NCBI GenBank assembly: GCA_050949225.1
Contig: JBMNFI010000001.1
Span: forward strand, 596,378 to 660,377
Length of the DNA: 64,000 nucleotides
Reading direction: 5' to 3'
Source: Bacillota bacterium
GTDB taxonomy: Bacteria; Bacillota; Dehalobacteriia; UBA4068
The notes under the pieces: model-generated
Told to the model about the DNA's origin: nothing
Databases searched by the model: none
Seen by the model: the letters and a program-made list of their open reading frames with translations, nothing else
Made by a program: the position numbers and the translations under genes
Part shown: positions 1,531-58,832 of the stretch, one piece after another
Numbering within the stretch: position 1 is the first letter of the stretch
How the letters are laid out: every line of letters starts with the position of its first letter

Positions 1531-2355
1531 TTACTTACGTCTTTTGATAATCAAATCACTGGACGCTTTCTTTGACCTTCTGGTTTTGGCGCCAAGTGCC
1601 GGTTTACCCCAAGGTGTAACAGGATGACGTCCTACAGGACTGCGTCCTTCACCACCACCATGTGGGTGATCACAAGGATTCATTACCACACCACGGACAC
1701 TGGGACGAACCCCCAGCCACCGATAACGCCCGGCTTTACCTATTTTAATATTTTCCTGATCAATATTACCGACTTGACCGATAGTGGCACGACAGCGAAC
1801 TAAAACCATTCTCATTTCACCGGATGGCAAACGCAAAGTCGCATATTTGCCTTCTTTAGCCATCAACTGTACAGAAGATCCGGCAGAACGAGCTAACTGC
1901 CCCCCCCTACCGGGAGTCAATTCGACATTATGAATTGTTGAACCCACCGGAATAGAATAAAGCGGCATCGCATTACCAACCTTGATGTCAACTTTCTCGC
2001 CGGAAAGCAGCACATCGCCAACTCTAACACCATAAGGAGCCAAGATATAAGTTTTGACACCATCTGCATAATGCAAAAGAGCAATATTGGCAGTACGATT
2101 AGGATCATATTCAATGCTGGCAATTTTGGCCGGCACATCATCTTTGCTTCTCTTAAAATCAATAATCCGATACATTTGCTTATGGCCGCCGCCTCGATGT
2201 CTAGTGGTAATACGGCCTTGGTTATTACGACCACCACTTTTTTTCAGCGGCGCCAGCAGGGATTTCTCCGGCTTAGAGGTAGTGACCTCCTCAAAAGTAG
2301 AAACGGTCATGCCTCTGCGTCCGGGAGAAATCGGTTTGTATTTTTTAATACCCAT
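1531..2355 (-). CDS. rplB: 50S ribosomal protein L2
   Basis: 274 aa starting [23 protein letters not shown]; the signature [17 protein letters not shown] is present. Confidence 0.95.
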
Positions 2356-2381
2356 TTTAGGTTTCCTCCTTCATCACGCTT

Positions 2382-2669
2382 TTACATGCCCTCAAAAATC
2401 TGGATCGAGTCGCCCTCTTTAAGAGTAACAATAGCCCTTTTAGTATCCGGACAATAGCCTTGATAACGACCCATTCTTTTGAGCTTGCCTCTCTGATTTC
2501 TGGTTGTCACATTAATGACACTTACATCAAAAATTTTTTCAATAGCCCGTTTGATTTCGATCTTATTGGCATCTTTGGCCACAATAAAAGCATATTTGTT
2601 TTCTTCCATCAAAATCATGGACTTTTCCGAAACCATCGGTTTCACTAAAATATCATGAACATCACGCAT
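2382..2669 (-). CDS. rplW: 50S ribosomal protein L23
   Basis: 95 aa in the canonical position between rplD and rplB. Confidence 0.88.
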   Translation of the reverse strand: MRDVHDILVKPMVSEKSMILMEENKYAFIVAKDANKIEIKRAIEKIFDVSVINVTTRNQRGKLKRMGRYQGYCPDTKRAIVTLKEGDSIQIFEGM

Positions 2670-3309: not shown

Positions 3310-3939
3310 TCATACAGACTTAACGGCACTGCGGATTAAGAGCATTCCCTTATTAGGTCCGGGAACAGCCCCTTTAATTAGCAATAAACCACGATCGACA
3401 TCCACTTTAACAACTTGCAGGTTTTGAATAGCTACCCTGTCACCACCCATGCGTCCGGGTGATTTTTTCCCTTTAAACACACGAGCGACTCCCTTTGCAG
3501 CGGTTGAACCGGGACGACGATGGTTTTTAGAACCGTGACTCATAGGACCGCGTCGATGACCCCATCTTTTGATAGTACCAGCAAATCCTTTACCTTTAGA
3601 TATCCCAACAACATCAACCTTTTCGCCCTCTGCAAAAATATCAACCTTCATTTCCTGTCCCAGCTCATAATCAGCAAGATTATCAACCTTAACTTCTCTG
3701 AGATAACGACAAGGATCAACGCCGGCTTTTTTAGCGTGACCGGCTTCCGGTTTATTAACGTTAACAGGTTTTTTAACATCAAAACCTATTTGTACGGCTT
3801 CATAACCTTCATTTTCAGTGGTTTTAATTTGAGTTACCACACAAGGTCCGGCAGCAATGACTGTAACAGGAATTATCTTACCTTCAGGATTAAAGACCTG
3901 TGTCATGCCAACCTTTTTGCCGAGCAATGCTTTCGGCAT
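3310..3939 (-). CDS. rplC: 50S ribosomal protein L3
   Basis: Internal start [16 protein letters not shown] preceded by GGAGGTG and a 7-nt spacer. 210 aa. The long N-terminal extension on the ORF track is rejected. Confidence 0.9.
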
Positions 3940-4090
3940 ATTTGTGCACCTCCATTTCATTTTCGCTCCCCTAAAAAACCTATTTACTAGCTTATGGGAG
4001 CTTAGGGGACAAAGCACACGTTTCCGGGTGTGCCTTACTTTAAAAAAATCCAAACTGTAACTTTTTTTTAAAAATATGAAAAACAAACAT

Positions 4091-4399
4091 CTATAATTTT
4101 ATCTCAATATCCACTCCGGCCGGTAAATCCATGCGGATCAGGGAATCCATCGTTTTAGGGGTGGGATCGATGATATCAATAAGGCGTTTGTGAGTTCTCA
4201 TCTCAAATTGTTCCCTGGAATCTTTGTTCACATGCGGTGAACGTAAAATTGTGTAAATATTCTTTTCGGTAGGTAGCGGGATCGGTCCCGAAACAGCCGC
4301 TCCGGATCTGGTAGCTGTCTCCACTATTTTAGCGGCTGATTGATCTAACAGCTTATGATCATATGCTTTAAGTCTGATACGAATTTTTTGTTTACCCAT
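4091..4399 (-). CDS. rpsJ: 30S ribosomal protein S10
   Basis: 102 aa starting [29 protein letters not shown]. First gene of the S10 operon. Confidence 0.95.
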
Positions 4400-4518
4400 C
4401 TTTTATTAACCTCCTTTTCGTCCGTAATTGTTTACGAACATTCTCCATGGAAAAACCTGCCTCTCTGCCAAAGATCAGCAGCAACCTCCCACTTCATCGC
4501 AGTCCATTTTTATAACTT

Positions 4519-4571: not shown

Positions 4572-5774
4572 CTACTCACTCACAGAAGAAACAACCCCGG
4601 CTCCCACTGTTCTGCCACCCTCACGAATAGCAAAATGCAAACCAGCTTCAATAGCAATCGGGATAATCAATTCTATTGTCATCTTAATGTTATCACCGGG
4701 CATTACCATCTCTACTCCCTCAGGAAGATGTGCTACGCCTGTTACATCTGTAGTTCTAAAGTAAAACTGTGGCCTGTAACCATTGAAAAACGGCGTATGA
4801 CGACCGCCCTCTTCCTTGGTCAAAATGTATACTTCCCCTTCAAATTTCGTGTGTGGCTTGATGCTGCCGGGTTTAGCTAAAACCTGACCTCTTTCCACAT
4901 CCTTACGCTCAACACCGCGCAATAAACAACCTACATTGTCGCCGGCTTCTGCAAAATCTAACAGCTTGCGGAACATTTCCACCCCGGTTACAACCGTAGA
5001 ACTCGTCTCTTCCTGTAAACCAACAATATCTACTGTATCTCCAACGCTGATAGTTCCTCTTTCCACACGACCGGTAACAACTGTACCACGACCCGTAATG
5101 GTAAAAACGTCTTCTATCGGCATCAAGAAAGGTTTATCCTTATCTCTTTCAGGTGAAGGAATGTATTCATCAACTTTATCCATCAGCTGCCATATCGGAC
5201 TGCAATCCTCACAATCACGAGACCCGCAACCGCATTGCAAAGCTTTTAAAGCTGAGCCGGCAATAATTGGGGTGTCATCTCCGGGAAATTCATACTCGGA
5301 AAGCAGCTCTCTGATTTCCATCTCTACCAATTCCAGTAATTCTTCATCATCTACCTGGTCTGCTTTATTCATGAATACCACAATATAAGGTACTCCTACT
5401 TGACGTGCTAAAAGGATATGCTCTCTGGTTTGAGGCATTGGACCGTCGGCTGCACTAACAACCAAGATAGCTCCATCCATCTGAGCTGCACCGGTAATCA
5501 TGTTTTTTACATAGTCGGCGTGACCGGGACAGTCTACATGGGCATAATGCCTTTTTTCTGTCTCATATTCCACGTGTGATGTATTAATCGTAATACCACG
5601 TTCTCTTTCTTCCGGAGCTGCGTCAATCTGATCATAGGCCTTAACCTCTGCTCCTCCTGCTTTTGACAAGCACAAAGTAATTGCTGCCGTCAAGGTTGTC
5701 TTACCGTGATCCACGTGACCAATTGTACCAATGTTTACGTGCGGCTTTGTTCTCTCAAATTTCTGTTTTGCCAT
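4572..5774 (-). CDS. tuf: Elongation factor Tu (copy 1, str-operon copy)
   Basis: 400 aa starting [28 protein letters not shown], with the GHVDHGKT and DCPGH GTPase motifs. Follows fusA. Confidence 0.97.
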
Positions 5775-20323: not shown

Positions 20324-21526
20324 CTACTCACTCACAGAAGAAACAACCCCGGCTCCCACTGTTCTGCCACCCTCACGAATAGCAAAATGCAAACCAGCTT
20401 CAATAGCAATCGGGATAATCAATTCTATTGTCATCTTAATGTTATCACCGGGCATTACCATCTCTACTCCCTCAGGAAGATGTGCTACGCCTGTTACATC
20501 TGTAGTTCTAAAGTAAAACTGTGGCCTGTAACCATTGAAAAACGGCGTATGACGACCGCCCTCTTCCTTGGTCAAAATGTATACTTCCCCTTCAAATTTC
20601 GTGTGTGGCTTGATGCTGCCGGGTTTAGCTAAAACCTGACCTCTTTCCACATCCTTACGCTCAACACCGCGCAATAAACAACCTACATTGTCGCCGGCTT
20701 CTGCAAAATCTAACAGCTTGCGGAACATTTCCACCCCGGTTACAACCGTAGAACTCGTCTCTTCCTGTAAACCAACAATATCTACTGTATCTCCAACGCT
20801 GATAGTTCCTCTTTCCACACGACCGGTAACAACTGTACCACGACCCGTAATGGTAAAAACGTCTTCTATCGGCATCAAGAAAGGTTTATCCTTATCTCTT
20901 TCAGGTGAAGGAATGTATTCATCAACTTTATCCATCAGCTGCCATATCGGACTGCAATCCTCACAATCACGAGACCCGCAACCGCATTGCAAAGCTTTTA
21001 AAGCTGAGCCGGCAATAATTGGGGTGTCATCTCCGGGAAATTCATACTCGGAAAGCAGCTCTCTGATTTCCATCTCTACCAATTCCAGTAATTCTTCATC
21101 ATCTACCTGGTCTGCTTTATTCATGAATACCACAATATAAGGTACTCCTACTTGACGTGCTAAAAGGATATGCTCTCTGGTTTGAGGCATTGGACCGTCG
21201 GCTGCACTAACAACCAAGATAGCTCCATCCATCTGAGCTGCACCGGTAATCATGTTTTTTACATAGTCGGCGTGACCGGGACAGTCTACATGGGCATAAT
21301 GCCTTTTTTCTGTCTCATATTCCACGTGTGATGTATTAATCGTAATACCACGTTCTCTTTCTTCCGGAGCTGCGTCAATCTGATCATAGGCCTTAACCTC
21401 TGCTCCTCCTGCTTTTGACAAGCACAAAGTAATTGCTGCCGTCAAGGTTGTCTTACCGTGATCCACGTGACCAATTGTACCAATGTTTACGTGCGGCTTT
21501 GTTCTCTCAAATTTCTGTTTTGCCAT
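20324..21526 (-). CDS. tuf: Elongation factor Tu (copy 2, upstream of rpmG-secE-nusG)
   Basis: 400-aa protein, 100% identical to copy 1. The nucleotide identity coincides with the CDS. Confidence 0.97.
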
Positions 21527-36756: not shown

Positions 36757-37521
36757 ATGTTCCCTTTAGTCCACCATTATAGCAATAAACAAGTTTTTGG
36801 TCATGCCAATGTAGACAACAGCCTGATTTTGGGCGGATTATTCCCCGATCTAGCTATCAATACGGGTCTTTCCCGAAATACCGCTCACACTTGCGGCCCG
36901 GCCTTTTATGAGTGGCATCAACTACATCAGTGCAAACATCTTAATTTTATTAAAGGCATCCTTACCCATAACACCTTACCTGAAGGCCTTGATTACTACT
37001 CCGATGAATTTTGGCCCGGCGGCGAAAAAGGTTATTGCTTTCAACAGGGCCGCTCCTGGATGAAAGAAGTGGAAAAAGCCACCGGTCTACCCCAAAAGTT
37101 GATCTGGTGGAAATCACATAACTTCGTCGAAATGGCCTTTGAACTGATAGCTTATCAAAGAGACCCGTTTCTGGGTCTACAGATATTAGAGGCTATTGGT
37201 GATCACCAGACCATTGAAGAAGTCTCCACAATGGTCAGCGATTTTTTCCGGATTGATAAAAAGAAAATGATTGAAGCCTATGAAATGGTTCCCAAAATCT
37301 TTGCTCTTTCTGAAGTCACACCGCAAACTTTGGCGGAAAAACAATGCCGTTCTTTCCAAACACGCCATAATTGTCATAACGGTAATATCGAGGAAATGAG
37401 CCACCTTCTGGAAGAAATGACTTGCTATTTCGACGATAAATTTGACCCCTTTATGCAAACAACAACTCACCTGATAAAAAACATGTTAAGCTCCCTTTGC
37501 GAAAAGCATCAAGAAAGTTAA
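36757..37521 (+). CDS. Hypothetical protein (254 aa, His/Cys-containing, no recognisable family)
   Basis: The ORF has an upstream GGAGG and a downstream terminator. The N-terminus is HHYSNKQVFGHANVDN.... Confidence 0.55.
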   Translation: MFPLVHHYSNKQVFGHANVDNSLILGGLFPDLAINTGLSRNTAHTCGPAFYEWHQLHQCKHLNFIKGILTHNTLPEGLDYYSDEFWPGGEKGYCFQQGRSWMKEVEKATGLPQKLIWWKSHNFVEMAFELIAYQRDPFLGLQILEAIGDHQTIEEVSTMVSDFFRIDKKKMIEAYEMVPKIFALSEVTPQTLAEKQCRSFQTRHNCHNGNIEEMSHLLEEMTCYFDDKFDPFMQTTTHLIKNMLSSLCEKHQES

Positions 37522-37558
37522 TCTCTCTCATTTTACAAACCTCTTTTTGAAATAGTCA

Positions 37559-37597
37559 GAGCCCGATGACCTGATCAAGTCGTCGGGCTCTCTTTAT
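37559..37597 (+). terminator. Stem-loop terminator after the 254-aa ORF (gagcccgatgac / gtcgtcgggctc)
   Basis: 12-bp stem with one G·U pair, followed by a weak T-tract. Confidence 0.45.
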
Positions 37598-37746
37598 AGA
37601 ATAAAGCATCTGTCTTTTTCTTTATTCGTAAAAGGCCTATAGCCTACTATATTCTATGTGAACATTATCATAAAAGTGATATTAACATATTGCTTTTCCT
37701 AAGCATAAACTATAAACAAATAATTCTTTTAGGAGAGGTGTTTTTT

Positions 37747-38343
37747 ATGAAAGGTTTTTGTAATACCGGTAGTAAATGTAGAAAACCATCAAGTCCCCCC
37801 AAAGGCGTAAAATGTCTAACACAATGTGTCCTGGATAGCTGCAAACAGTGTATCGAGGTAAGTACGGAAATCAAATTACCCATCCAACAACCAAGCGTCA
37901 GAAGCAGCAGTCTGCCTCCGGTCGGCACCTGCATTCCTATCAATCCCGCCGGCCAGATAAATTGTCAGGAAATCAGCCGTGAATGCACTTGTGAAGGTAT
38001 GTGTTTATCAACCGTGTTGTTTAATTATCCTATGCAATTGCATAATCCTTGTAATCCCTGTGATGCCATGTTCTATAATATTACCTCCATGGAAAATGTT
38101 GCCCTGTGCTGTACCGCAGATTCGCAGCTCGATTGCGTAAACACACGCATCATTTCAGCAAAAGCCGTGGTAACAAATGTGGATTGTGAAAATATCACAA
38201 TCACTATTAAATTATGGGTTGATACCGAATACCATCAAACCGCCTATCAAGAAATTTGCATGCCTCAAGCTTATGTAACCGAAAAACGTATTTGTGATGA
38301 AGGTATGTCCCCCTGTGAATTCAACCAAAGAAGAACCAGATAA
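37747..38343 (+). CDS. Cysteine-rich protein of unknown function (~198 aa, ~24 Cys), candidate spore-coat/structural protein
   Basis: The ATG after GGAGAGG gives MKGFCNTGSKCRKPSSPPKGVKCLTQCVLDSCKQCIE.... There is no signal peptide. It is flanked by terminators on both sides. Confidence 0.55.
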   Translation: MKGFCNTGSKCRKPSSPPKGVKCLTQCVLDSCKQCIEVSTEIKLPIQQPSVRSSSLPPVGTCIPINPAGQINCQEISRECTCEGMCLSTVLFNYPMQLHNPCNPCDAMFYNITSMENVALCCTADSQLDCVNTRIISAKAVVTNVDCENITITIKLWVDTEYHQTAYQEICMPQAYVTEKRICDEGMSPCEFNQRRTR

Positions 38344-38368: not shown

Positions 38369-38408
38369 AAAAACCCGCCGAGATGCTTTGCATCTTGGCG
38401 GGTTTTTT
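38369..38408. terminator. Bidirectional Rho-independent terminator (AAAAA cccgccgagatgc ttt gcatcttggcggg TTTTTT)
   Basis: Serves the Cys-rich gene on the plus strand and ilvN on the minus strand. Confidence 0.75.
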
Positions 38409-40826: not shown

Positions 40827-41357
40827 CTACTTGACATTATAATTGGTATATTTTTTATCCAACTTCTTTACCACTGTCAATAATTCTTGCGGCATTTCAT
40901 AATAGCCCTCTCTGCCACCGGGCGTATTCCCGGTCCCCGCCTCGGGTTTGCCACTGCCAATACTACCATAAGCAACCTCATCATACATAGCAATCGTCGT
41001 ATTATCATTAAACTTAATGTAATATGATTCCATACCCGTCAGTTGTCTTGCCGCTGTAGCTACCTGCCATTGTTCAAATTGCACAGCATCAATCAATTCC
41101 TGAATCTCCTCTGGATTTGTCACTTCAAATGAACAAACTTCCCTTTCTCTATGAAATCCCGCCCAAATCGTTACAGCGTCCGACTCCAGACTATATTTTT
41201 CAGCCAACATCGCTCCCTCCAACACCTCTGCCTGCTCTGTCTGATCATGATTTCTGACATCCTTCAGGTCATCAGCCTTGTTGCAACCACCTACAAGCAA
41301 ACCCAAGCACAGTAAACTGATCACCATCAACATAAACCTTCTTTTTATTAACATCAT
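40827..41357 (-). CDS. Putative lipoprotein (176 aa)
   Basis: Signal peptide with a lipobox-like LLVGGC. Only 25 nt downstream of the 505-aa secreted protein gene. Confidence 0.55.
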   Translation of the reverse strand: MMLIKRRFMLMVISLLCLGLLVGGCNKADDLKDVRNHDQTEQAEVLEGAMLAEKYSLESDAVTIWAGFHREREVCSFEVTNPEEIQELIDAVQFEQWQVATAARQLTGMESYYIKFNDNTTIAMYDEVAYGSIGSGKPEAGTGNTPGGREGYYEMPQELLTVVKKLDKKYTNYNVK

Positions 41358-41382: not shown

Positions 41383-42900
41383 TTAAACCCATCCCCAGTA
41401 ATTCTGATCACCAATAAATTTTAAAGGTAAATCCAGCGTCGGCAATTGATTCTTAGCCCACACAGCACAATTATAAAGTCGGCTACCGTCCACTCCGGCG
41501 AAAAATATTCTGGCAAATTGCGCATTATTACTTGCATAAGTAATACGTGTCCAACCCATAAAAACCCTATTGCTGCTGTTATTAGTTATATTAAAAGCAT
41601 TCGCCCAAGCTGTTGTTCCGGCACTACAACAATTCAAAAACACAAAACGCCACGACCCATTATAACCATCAATAGTAGTTCTTTGTAATGTAAAAACGAA
41701 CTCATTGTTCGAATAATTTTTAATGCCAATATCTCCAGCAGATCCATGTCCATGAAAATAAAAGCCATAGGCATCCGCACGTTTTAAGAAGCTGATTATC
41801 TTTGCTTTCATGCTGTAAGCATCGGAACACTCCTTAAAAACAGGTAGATATCCTAATGTAACAAAGCTGCTCGTCGCCTTACTCAAAATATCATCAACCT
41901 GATACATGCCTTTATTGCCATAAGCACCCGCTACAAGCTGCGCCTCATCCCCACCAATCACTTCTCCAGTCACCGCATCCACATGAAAGAGCAAAGAGCT
42001 ATCATCCGATTCAATCACATAAGCCAAACGCACAAATTGAGCCGGTTCATAAGGGCCACCCTCTGTCCAGTAAAAATTAGGCTGCACATATTTCAGATAT
42101 ACTTTGCCGACTTTAACCTCATTATAACCCTCTAACCCCTCCATCACTGGCTTTGCTTTGGCTACAGCTTCCCTTTCGCTGATTGCAGGGGTTTCCGTGT
42201 TGGCCTCCATTCCAAAAACACTAAGGAAGGCCACACTATTGTCAGCTCTTGCTACCGTCACCGTTACCCCATCATGCTCGTTAATCAAACCATTATCCAA
42301 CTTAGCCCGATAATAAAGCATCCAATAGTCCACCGTCTCCTCTGCTGACTTTACTAACTCATATTTATCACTAACTCCCAGCATCTCCAAAGCTTTTCCG
42401 CCTGTAGCCAGATATTGCTCTTCTGTAGTATCCCATGTTTCACCATCAGCAGCAATCACTTCATCACCGGAATTAAAAATGCTAATCAGCTGACCTTCTG
42501 CATTTAGGCAGAAAAACTGTTCTTTATCAATCGTATATTTCGTATAAGTCTCACCTGTATAATTCAAGATATCTTTCTTAACCTCGGCCTGCTTTACCTT
42601 ATCCACTCTAACACCCAAATCCTGCAAACTCGCTTGTTCTTTGGCAGATAAAATAGCTGTATCCACTTTTTTCACAGCATAACTCTTCTTGACAATATCA
42701 TGAATCCCTTCCTCAGTATCCGCCAACGCCAGCTCCTTTTGAGAAACCTCTTGCTTCAGAGCCAAGACACTTGAAGCTTCCTTACCCACGCTCTCCTCAT
42801 CAACAGCACCGGCATTCAGGACAGGCATCATCACCAAAACTGCCAATAAAGCCAGTACAACAATACCTAACATCTTTTTCTTCATAATCAAATCCTCCAT
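41383..42900 (-). CDS. Secreted protein with PepSY-like repeats and a C-terminal putative clan-CD-like cysteine-peptidase motif (His-Gly...Cys)
   Basis: Signal peptide MKKKMLGIVVLALLAVLVMMPVLNAGA. PepSY-like repeats such as LAYVIESDDSSLLFHVDAVTGEVIGGD. The C-terminus carries FYFHGHGSAG and FVFLNCCSAG. Confidence 0.5.
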   Translation of the reverse strand: MEDLIMKKKMLGIVVLALLAVLVMMPVLNAGAVDEESVGKEASSVLALKQEVSQKELALADTEEGIHDIVKKSYAVKKVDTAILSAKEQASLQDLGVRVDKVKQAEVKKDILNYTGETYTKYTIDKEQFFCLNAEGQLISIFNSGDEVIAADGETWDTTEEQYLATGGKALEMLGVSDKYELVKSAEETVDYWMLYYRAKLDNGLINEHDGVTVTVARADNSVAFLSVFGMEANTETPAISEREAVAKAKPVMEGLEGYNEVKVGKVYLKYVQPNFYWTEGGPYEPAQFVRLAYVIESDDSSLLFHVDAVTGEVIGGDEAQLVAGAYGNKGMYQVDDILSKATSSFVTLGYLPVFKECSDAYSMKAKIISFLKRADAYGFYFHGHGSAGDIGIKNYSNNEFVFTLQRTTIDGYNGSWRFVFLNCCSAGTTAWANAFNITNNSSNRVFMGWTRITYASNNAQFARIFFAGVDGSRLYNCAVWAKNQLPTLDLPLKFIGDQNYWGWV

Positions 42901-43133
42901 TTTACTTGTTGAGTGTTTTTACTATCTCATGATGTTAGGCAAACTATCTGTTAAGAACAATTGCCCCCCCCACAGAATAATTTATTCACCTCTTCGTATA
43001 TTAACATACTCCTCCTCCCTAGTCTGTCGAATAAAGTCGAACCGCACCAAAGTTAATCAACATTGACCTTGCAGCCAGACAAAAGACCGCTACAGATAAC
43101 CATCTATAGCGGCCGTTTACTCTCATTATTCGC

Positions 43134-43928
43134 TTATTTATTTCTCTGTACTCCATTATAATCAACATACCAATTATCCTTCAACAATAACTCGCTAATA
43201 GGAACAATCTCCAAATTATGCTCTTCAGTCAACTGTTTAAGTATTGGATCTAAGGCCTCAGCAGTGTGTTTGCCATTGTTATGAAAAAGGACAATATCAC
43301 CTTGACCAATATCTTTCATCACCCGTTCTTCGATTTCGGTGGCACTCAAATCTTTCCAATCCAAGCTATCAATAGACCACTGAATAGGCATAAACCCCAA
43401 ATTCTGGCACTTTTCAATCACGTTATTATTATAATCACCAAAAGGTGGTCTAAAGAGAACAGCCTCCTGTCCCGTGACTTCTTTAATCAGTTGATAATTA
43501 TCATTTAATTCCTGCGTGATTTGTTCATCAGTTAAAGAGGTAAAGTTCGGATGCGTCACCGAATGCAAACCTATTTCATGACCGCGGGAAGCAATTTCCC
43601 GAGCCATTTCAGGATAATCATTAATCCAAATATTAACCAAAAAGAAAGTCGTTTTTATCTCATATTTGTCCAAAATGTCCAAAATTTTCTCCGTTTTTTC
43701 CGCACCCCAACTGGCATCAAAACTAATAGAAAGTTGCTTCTTAGGGGTATCAACTTCATAAACAGGCAAAAGACGTACCGTCTGCGAAACAGCACTGATA
43801 AAATAATTGCCCTGTATATACGGTCCGGCAAATAAAAGTATCAATAAGACAACCAGCGCAAAAATAAAGCCTATTCTTTGTCGCACAAATTTAAGTAGCT
43901 TATCTTTTCTTTTTTGCAAAAGTTTCAC
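43134..43928 (-). CDS. Polysaccharide deacetylase (NodB-homology, CE4) family, membrane-anchored
   Basis: 264 aa. Motif 2 is HSVTH and motif 3 is RPPFG. Motif 1 is SFDAS (second Asp replaced). N-terminal TM anchor. Confidence 0.8.
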   Translation of the reverse strand: MKLLQKRKDKLLKFVRQRIGFIFALVVLLILLFAGPYIQGNYFISAVSQTVRLLPVYEVDTPKKQLSISFDASWGAEKTEKILDILDKYEIKTTFFLVNIWINDYPEMAREIASRGHEIGLHSVTHPNFTSLTDEQITQELNDNYQLIKEVTGQEAVLFRPPFGDYNNNVIEKCQNLGFMPIQWSIDSLDWKDLSATEIEERVMKDIGQGDIVLFHNNGKHTAEALDPILKQLTEEHNLEIVPISELLLKDNWYVDYNGVQRNK

Positions 43929-44292: not shown

Positions 44293-44435
44293 AAACTTTT
44301 TTACTTATCTTAATCTTTCTGTCTTAACTATTTTCAGTTAAAGTATTTTGGCAATCCCTGCCTCAATTAGTATAACCCATATCACTATTTTTAGCAATAT
44401 GATCAAATCTTTAAAAACTACATAGTGAATTTTTT

Positions 44436-47520
<3,085 letters not shown>

Positions 47521-58565: not shown

Positions 58566-58832
58566 TTATAAACAATAATGCAGCCCCGCTAAAGCTGCTA
58601 CTCCAGGAAAGCCTAATACAGCCGAAACGGCTAGAGTAAAAGCATTAAAAGGTAAAGCGATTAAGCCACCGGCAAAATAATTAACCACAAGTATCGCGGC
58701 AAAACCACAAGCACAGTTCAGAGCCAGCCTGCCTGCCACACGCCAAAATCCTTGTGGCAAAAAGGACAAAGCAAACAAAAAACCCAGTCCCCCGGCGGCC
58801 AATAGGATTGTTTTCCATAAATCAGTCATCAT
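58566..58832 (-). CDS. bofA: BofA-family protein (inhibitor of pro-sigma-K processing), sporulation
   Basis: 88 aa with 2 TM helices. The C-terminus ...VVNYFAGGLIALPFNAFTLAVSAVLGFPGVAALAGL matches the BofA consensus. The position downstream of recR is as in B. subtilis. Confidence 0.65.
   Translation of the reverse strand: MMTDLWKTILLAAGGLGFLFALSFLPQGFWRVAGRLALNCACGFAAILVVNYFAGGLIALPFNAFTLAVSAVLGFPGVAALAGLHYCL

Follow-up and report, generated by a model that had tools for sequence, protein, structure and literature searches.

The DNA analysed here, called the window below, is a 64,000-nucleotide (64-kb) stretch of a Bacillota bacterium (GTDB Dehalobacteriia, UBA4068; assembly GCA_050949225.1, contig JBMNFI010000001.1, positions 596,378 to 660,377 of the forward strand), and the element under study is the gene at 37747-38343, which encodes a cysteine-rich protein of 198 residues. 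An original prediction, made from the letters of the window, had placed here an orphan gene bracketed by terminators, whose product would be a spore coat or exosporium component or, equally well, a metallothionein-like protein. The gene and the elements around it are the following.

37558-37591, plus strand: upstream hairpin with a 13-bp stem and an 8-nt loop (-25.3 kcal/mol, z -5.55)
37683-37687, plus strand: -35-like element TAACA, which contains the diagnostic AC (4/5 of the B. subtilis sigma-K KCACM)
37703-37712, plus strand: -10-like element GCATAAACTA (10/10 of the sigma-K/sigma-E-type consensus GCATANNNTA)
37732-37738, plus strand: Shine-Dalgarno sequence GGAGAGG, 8 nt 5' of the ATG, read from the sequence
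37747-38343, plus strand: coding sequence of 198 codons plus stop with 20 cysteines (ATG 37747, TAA 38341-38343)
38369-38407, both strands: bidirectional intrinsic terminator of the form A5-stem-U6 with an 18-bp stem, recognized by folding energy

A stand-alone gene at 37747-38343 is real, and its reading frame and good Shine-Dalgarno sequence are as originally described. Comparison of the window gene with its two closest homologues gave proportions of nonsynonymous differences (pN) of 0.20-0.28 versus proportions of synonymous differences (pS) of 0.78-0.87, the latter being saturated; it is therefore a real coding gene whose protein is subject to purifying selection. An alternative longer start, TTG at 37690, was discarded, since its position is 5' of the -10 element and the homologues align from the ATG. 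The G+C content of the gene is 41.9% versus 42.6% for the window, and composition gives no hint of foreign origin. Both hairpins said to bracket the gene exist, with the reservation that the upstream one, although terminator-like, has a weak U tract (CUCUUUAU); a simple terminator scan detected part of it, and it stands between an upstream gene for a 254-residue protein and the cysteine-rich gene. The downstream one is able to terminate both ways because it folds stably on each strand (-29.9 kcal/mol, z -9.7, on the plus strand; -26.5 kcal/mol, z -7.0, on the minus strand), and it is common to the cysteine-rich gene and the convergent ilvN/ilvB genes (acetolactate synthase).

The protein contains 20 cysteines in 198 residues (10.1%), not about 24 (12%) as first counted. 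Its cysteine-rich character stands all the same, since the enrichment is far above chance for the window: the cysteine fraction is the highest among the 63 open reading frames of at least 100 codons, for which the mean is 1.6% and the runner-up reaches 5%. The CxxC and CxC clusters that had been claimed are present but few, with two CxxC (C32, C102), one CxC (C80) and one CC (C121-122). The absence of a signal peptide was confirmed, as neither a hydrophobic N-terminus nor a transmembrane segment was detected (top Kyte-Doolittle 19-residue average 0.92). Aromatic or histidine residues number 12 (four Phe, five Tyr, one Trp and two His). In one or both of two alignments (A3, A5), half of the cysteines are shared by all or most of the relatives, namely C5 and C11 in the N-terminal tail, C23, C32, C73, C121, C122 and C130 in the core, and C183 and C190 in the C-terminal tail; C183 is kept throughout the aligned relatives, and C190 is fully conserved in A5, the broader alignment, only. 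The remaining ten are specific to the clade of the window protein, as are the two CxxC motifs to judge from cysteine conservation in the alignments, and the conserved cysteines form no known metal- or cluster-binding motif.

The label of orphan has to be given up, for HMMER and profile searches place the protein in a family of well over 100 members. A word-indexed search returned two close relatives only, which are 60% and 54% identical to the protein and come from metagenome bins of Bacillota. An exhaustive HMMER search over 1.84 billion cluster representatives matched 17 representatives, the profile built from these found 79 proteins at E<=1e-3, and a broader profile found 274 proteins at E<=10, the best 120 of the 274 all having E<=5e-55. 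Every member is annotated as 'hypothetical', and nearly all are 195-230 residues long; cysteine makes up 8-10% across the family, whose proteins typically have 16-20 cysteines in about 200 residues. No member carries a precomputed Pfam domain, and the window protein and more than 80 relatives gave nothing when scanned against Pfam and NCBIfam, an H_lectin match at E 0.3 being taken as noise. A strongly conserved N-terminus (PGxCPPEGCPPPTRIECIVVDKVYDSCFQ) and a Pro/Cys-rich C-terminus characterise the main subfamily, whereas the window protein falls in a small, divergent clade. The tails of its relatives are Cys/Asn-rich and variable in length, the N-terminal one often being far richer in Cys and Asn. 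Several genomes contain paralogues, some of them in tandem; none was found within the 64-kb window. Longer members of 318-379 residues also occur (L009, L012, P0016, P0045, P0049, P0061, P0131, P0135), with N- or C-terminal extensions made of Thr-rich linkers, an extra beta region or a coiled-coil-like N-terminus (P0061).

Thirty-nine genomic loci carrying family genes were retrieved, and source names were also taken from the sequence-search entries. The named hosts are Moorella/Neomoorella, Thermanaeromonas, Zhaonella, Alkaliphilus, Natronincola and Gracilibacter, together with Peptococcaceae/Peptococcia, Desulfitobacteriia and Thermoanaerobacterales. Every named host is an endospore-forming anaerobic Bacillota and, going by these names, the family is confined to endospore formers.

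The original prediction had proposed a search of 37600-37746 for a sigma-K or sigma-E promoter, and this search was positive for one of sigma-K type. The two elements are arranged as TAACA-N15-GCATAAACTA, equivalent to AC-N17-CATA with canonical spacing; they sit downstream of the 37558-37591 hairpin, and the -10 ends 34 nt before the ATG. In B. subtilis, the sigma-K consensus reads KCACM / GCATANNNTA and the sigma-E consensus TYATATTT / KCATANANTN (PMC3416734), and the C. difficile factors have a common -10 and distinct -35 elements, which contain AC in the case of sigma-K and ATA in that of sigma-E (PMC3789822). When both strands of the window are counted, AACA-N16-MATANNNTA has two matches versus 0.42 expected, and one of them is the site described here. 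The other, at 42956-42984(+), has a minus-strand gene on either side and no plus-strand open reading frame downstream, and is probably due to chance.

Both close homologues (loci L001 and L003) carry GCATAAGATA, equally far from the ATG. More widely, ACA-N15-17-[AC]ATAnnnTA was present in 23 of 42 non-identical family upstream regions, which are sequences related to one another, versus 13 among 277 control genes taken from those loci, and several of these 13 are conserved neighbours of the family gene. The logo of 20 non-redundant sites reads gTAACA-N16-AATAntATA with about 0 bits in the spacer, and in the main subfamily the element is located 35-60 nt before the start codon. Neither sigma-E-like nor sigma-A-like (TTGACA/TATAAT) patterns were found upstream of the family genes. 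The bofA gene that had been reported in the window is indeed there, at 58566-58832(-) (PF07441, E 4e-13). BofA regulates pro-sigma-K processing. As a positive control, yabG of Zhaonella, a gene which is a sigma-K target in C. difficile (PMC3789822), shows GGCACC...AC-N17-CATATCATA. A conserved 'A.TAG', outside the search pattern, was also seen 2-6 nt 3' of the -10 in main-subfamily promoters (e.g. L013, L022, L032, L044); it is absent from the window gene and may be a start-site region or a regulator site.

AlphaFold2 was run on the window protein with a 74-sequence alignment and returned a model with a mean pLDDT (predicted local distance difference test) of 84.7 and a pTM (predicted template modelling score) of 0.72, which divides the protein into three parts.

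37747-37806, plus strand: N-terminal tail, residues 1-20, predicted to be disordered (pLDDT 45-62), with C5 and C11
37807-38262, plus strand: predicted all-beta core, residues 21-172, with eight strands (pLDDT mostly >90)
38263-38340, plus strand: C-terminal tail, residues 173-198, predicted with low confidence, with C183 and C190

The first (21-45) and last (149-172) strands of the predicted core are about 25 residues long each, and an independent prediction for the Moorella homologue gave the same strand pattern with disordered tails. When PDB sequences were searched with the family profile, chance matches only were obtained (an integrase, E 0.05, and HcgC, E 0.64), a Foldseek comparison of the model with the PDB found no relative (best E 6e-3, template modelling score <0.25), and the BFVD viral models contained nothing at E<=1e-3. 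No enzyme family in Pfam, NCBIfam or the PDB matched the window protein or the family profile.

The gene order RidA, YitT, 246-254-residue protein, cysteine-rich gene is the same in the window and in two close relatives, and this neighbourhood, with ilvNB on the other side, gives no functional clue. The 254-residue protein directly upstream (36757-37521, plus strand) has no Pfam or NCBIfam match; it is syntenic with the cysteine-rich gene in all close relatives and shares 59% identity with the L001 copy. In the main subfamily, the gene lies within a conserved module of unnamed proteins (L004 6856-11103, L007 8795-11851 and about 30 further loci among L009-L047), whose other members are as follows.

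Protein of about 405-550 residues: 31 of 41 loci
HMA-like protein of about 103 residues with a single cysteine: 30 of 41 loci
CAP-domain protein of about 222 residues: 20 of 41 loci
Protein of about 332 residues: 19 of 41 loci
Protein of about 92 residues: 15 of 41 loci

These unnamed neighbours often carry the sigma-K-like motif of the family, and the module is a candidate spore-surface gene cluster; none of its genes was found between 30 and 44 kb of the window. In Zhaonella, the gene adjoins yabG, veg, a LysM/SleB-like hydrolase and glycosyltransferases, and in Moorella it adjoins a LysM protein and an Amidase_3/SLH protein. A second cysteine-rich family (A4), of about 240-260 residues with 19-26 cysteines, occurs in five of the loci (L007, L011, L024, L025, L031), with copies at 1832-2566(-) and 3707-4429(-) of L007. 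Its C-terminus reads CxQCPPPQ, it has a sub-threshold similarity to CotE through the motif G..V.I.G.YDI.VW.F (in hhalign a short local match only, E 0.0026), and a relaxed sigma-K-like motif stands upstream of 5/6 copies. The hhalign comparison of A4 with the family under study was insignificant.

Several known spore-envelope proteins invite comparison, beginning with those of the SPOCS fold, SPOCS standing for SpoVID-CotE-SipL. According to a September 2026 preprint, CsxA of the C. sporogenes exosporium basal layer and CsxC of the parasporal crystal are cysteine-rich and have the SPOCS/DUF3794 fold, which has been assigned to C. difficile CdeC by AlphaFold prediction; these proteins form intertwined trimers ('tripod') and disulfide-locked lattices, and the known SPOCS members have no mutual sequence similarity (10.64898/2026.09.03.749163). 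Bacillus arrives at the same end with the unrelated CotY/ExsY proteins, of a different fold, and self-assembling cysteine-rich lattices recur in spore envelopes, as CsxA/CsxC/CdeC and as CotY/ExsY (10.64898/2026.09.03.749163). The family is like CsxA, CsxC and CdeC in being clostridial, cysteine-rich, beta-rich and devoid of a signal peptide. It differs from them in its smaller size (about 200 residues, 16-20 cysteines). CsxA, CsxC and CdeC are made for the outer envelope and have been proposed to build lattices locked by cooperative disulfides.

Three members are labelled 'SipL SPOCS domain-containing' in UniRef (A0A1J5JKG6 and A0A1J5P944 from Moorella, and one from Alkaliphilus peptidifermentans) and one from A. 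pronyensis is labelled 'DUF3794 domain-containing'. These labels could not be reproduced: at E<=10, hmmscan found no PF12673, PF20918 or PF10628 in the window protein, in the 74 members of A3 or in 15 others which include all four labelled proteins. CotE and SpoVID-N sequences matched their own Pfam models (E 9e-80 and 3e-48), so that both models were among those searched. Hhalign of A3 and A5 against these two gave probabilities <1%, a weak test because the templates are single sequences and SPOCS members are mutually dissimilar. A regular-expression search of the retrieved loci for DUF3794-like proteins, meant for a SPOCS profile, found none. CotE, SpoVID and SipL are mother-cell spore-envelope proteins, and if UniRef labels the four members correctly, the family would possibly share an ancient fold with them; however, they are cysteine-poor organisers with partner-binding regions or LysM, whereas the family is cysteine-rich and consists of a single domain with tails.

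CotY, CotZ and ExsY (PF10612), to which the family would be functionally equivalent, are small (about 150-160 residues), cysteine-rich, late mother-cell products. They self-assemble into disulfide-stabilised two-dimensional crystals of the crust or exosporium basal layer (10.64898/2026.09.03.749163). In contrast, the family has no sequence relationship with them, its hosts belong to anaerobic Clostridia-type lineages, and no PF10612 match was found in the window protein or the relatives scanned by Pfam.

Our preferred reading, to which we give a probability of roughly 0.6, is that the gene encodes a late mother-cell (sigma-K-type), disulfide-cross-linked structural protein of the spore coat or exosporium, like CsxA/CdeC or CotY/ExsY. 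A coat or exosporium protein dependent on sigma-K or sigma-E had been proposed from the start. The sigma-K-type promoter, the related motif in distant homologues, the endospore-forming hosts of the family, the lack of a signal peptide and the presence of bofA all point in this direction, and three of the traits of the cysteine-rich spore-envelope class, namely endospore-former hosts, no signal peptide and richness in cysteine, were found together. Main-subfamily neighbours such as yabG and the SleB-like LysM hydrolase of Zhaonella, the LysM protein of Moorella and the second cysteine-rich family are also in its favour, as is the precedent of the cysteine-rich lattices known from other spore envelopes. 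By analogy, on the basis of promoter, taxonomic distribution, cysteine pattern and tail-core-tail architecture, the protein would work like the CsxA/CdeC/CotY class; sigma-K dependence, spore localisation, self-assembly and disulfide cross-linking are what we infer from them. Late in sporulation, sigma-K RNA polymerase would transcribe the gene monocistronically from TAACA-N15-GCATAAACTA. The protein would be made in the mother-cell cytoplasm, because it has no signal peptide, and then be deposited on the forespore surface. There its rigid all-beta core may self-associate, the two terminal strands of about 25 residues being candidates for inter-subunit strand exchange or sheet extension, and the array would be locked by disulfides between the conserved core cysteines and the flexible cysteine-bearing N- and C-terminal tails.

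Several observations weigh against this reading. In the two closest homologues, L001 and L003, the -35 reads AGCA, not AC. The strict a-priori pattern AC-N16-17-CATAnnnTA is not enriched (2/42 family promoters versus 19/277 controls); the family-wide motif begins with AATA, enrichment is seen solely with the relaxed -10 [AC]ATAnnnTA, and the p-values of the relaxed motif are optimistic because this form was set after seeing the data. The -35 region of the window gene overlaps a sigma-E-like CATATT, at a spacing about 2 nt too short for sigma-E. The clade of the window protein lies among housekeeping genes and lacks the gene surroundings that are conserved in the main subfamily. Neither the sequence searches nor the comparisons with solved structures connected the protein to a characterised coat protein. 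The genes Moth_1266-1271 (tags inferred) and the corresponding UniProt accessions do not appear in the part of the Moorella spore-proteome table that was examined (PMC8745062), although cross-linked proteins extract poorly.

The same promoter evidence fits equally well with a subunit of a spore surface fibre (endospore appendage), in which beta cores would be stacked as a filament, each joined covalently to the next subunit through its cysteine-bearing N-terminal tail, as in the Ena pili of Bacillus. In Ena proteins, a disordered N-terminal connector bearing cysteines precedes a rigid beta domain, and intermolecular disulfides confer extreme stability (PMC11362473). The architecture of the family is analogous, with conserved cysteines in a disordered N-terminal extension before the beta domain as in Ena1A/B (PMC11362473) and in Ena3A, and the paralogues present in several genomes, sometimes in tandem, are also in favour of a fibre. 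However, the family has in addition a conserved cysteine-bearing C-terminal tail, and no DUF3992 match in Pfam and no similarity to solved Ena structures in the fold searches were found; we regard a fibre subunit as unlikely. The protein might also be associated with the spore in a non-structural role, as a redox-active, metal- or Fe-S-binding thiol buffer, metal sink or oxidoreductase. Ten conserved cysteines, the two CxxC of the window clade and the HMA-like neighbour in 30 of the 41 main-subfamily loci speak for such a role, but the conserved cysteines form no known metal or cluster motif, the CxxC pair is clade-specific, the HMA-like protein has one cysteine only and Pfam, NCBIfam and the PDB offer no enzyme family. 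The variable number of tail cysteines is a better fit to cross-linking than to a defined site, and this alternative appears quite improbable to us.

Metallothioneins are proteins of less than about 100 residues, with 15-30% cysteine in CxC/CxxC clusters, few aromatic residues and no stable fold without metal. The statement that the gene was equally consistent with such a metal-binding protein, which would be cytoplasmic and vegetative, did not survive the comparison. With 10% cysteine and no signal peptide the protein has something of this class, but its 198 residues, confidently predicted beta fold, 12 aromatic or histidine residues, small number of CxC/CxxC clusters (four in all) and conservation of only about half of its cysteines do not fit. 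The family is moreover confined to spore formers and has a mother-cell sigma-type promoter, with no sigma-A-like TTGACA/TATAAT upstream. A metallothionein is already disfavoured and can be considered highly improbable.

Other features of the window deserve mention. The two EF-Tu (tuf) coding sequences at 4572-5774(-) and 20324-21526(-) are 100% identical over 1203 nt, and the identity ends within 0-2 nt of the ends of the coding sequences, which looks like a signature of gene conversion. Three genes at 40827-41357(-), 41383-42900(-) and 43134-43928(-) stand just before the ribosomal RNA (rRNA) operon; they include a 176-residue lipoprotein-like protein and a 505-residue protein with a hydrophobic, signal-peptide-like N-terminus, both without family match and adjoining a polysaccharide deacetylase. 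The 23S rRNA match at 44435-47518(-) is 3084 nt long versus 2925 positions in the Rfam model, and may contain an insertion or intervening sequence.

As far as the window is concerned, a gene so far only 'hypothetical' receives a sound functional annotation, and the outcome is what a spore biologist would expect from such a sequence. Neither the family nor its conserved promoter and gene module had been described before. To our knowledge, the proteins of the outermost spore layer are known only in Bacillus and a few Clostridium species, and a cysteine-rich family restricted to spore formers, with a conserved late mother-cell promoter and a set of neighbours, is a concrete candidate for them. 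Moorella thermoacetica forms the most heat-resistant spores known among food-spoilage organisms, and in Moorella an exosporium is visible although no orthologue of ExsY, CotY, CdeC, CdeM or BclA exists (PMC8745062); the family is a reasonable candidate for the scaffold role there. A bolder proposal, which we advance tentatively and judge doubtful, is that the family is the missing exosporium or outer-coat scaffold of Moorella, Peptococcaceae, Alkaliphilus and related anaerobic spore formers, in which all known exosporium morphogenetic proteins would be missing, polymerising by exchange of the long terminal strands and locked by its tails. If this were true, the family would represent a new self-assembling, disulfide-cured protein material with a beta fold lacking a solved relative, and the main subfamily would encode it together with a conserved five-gene sigma-K-type module. 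Should SPOCS turn out to be the fold of the family, the recent view of cysteine-rich SPOCS proteins as general lattice builders of the clostridial spore envelope would be broadened.
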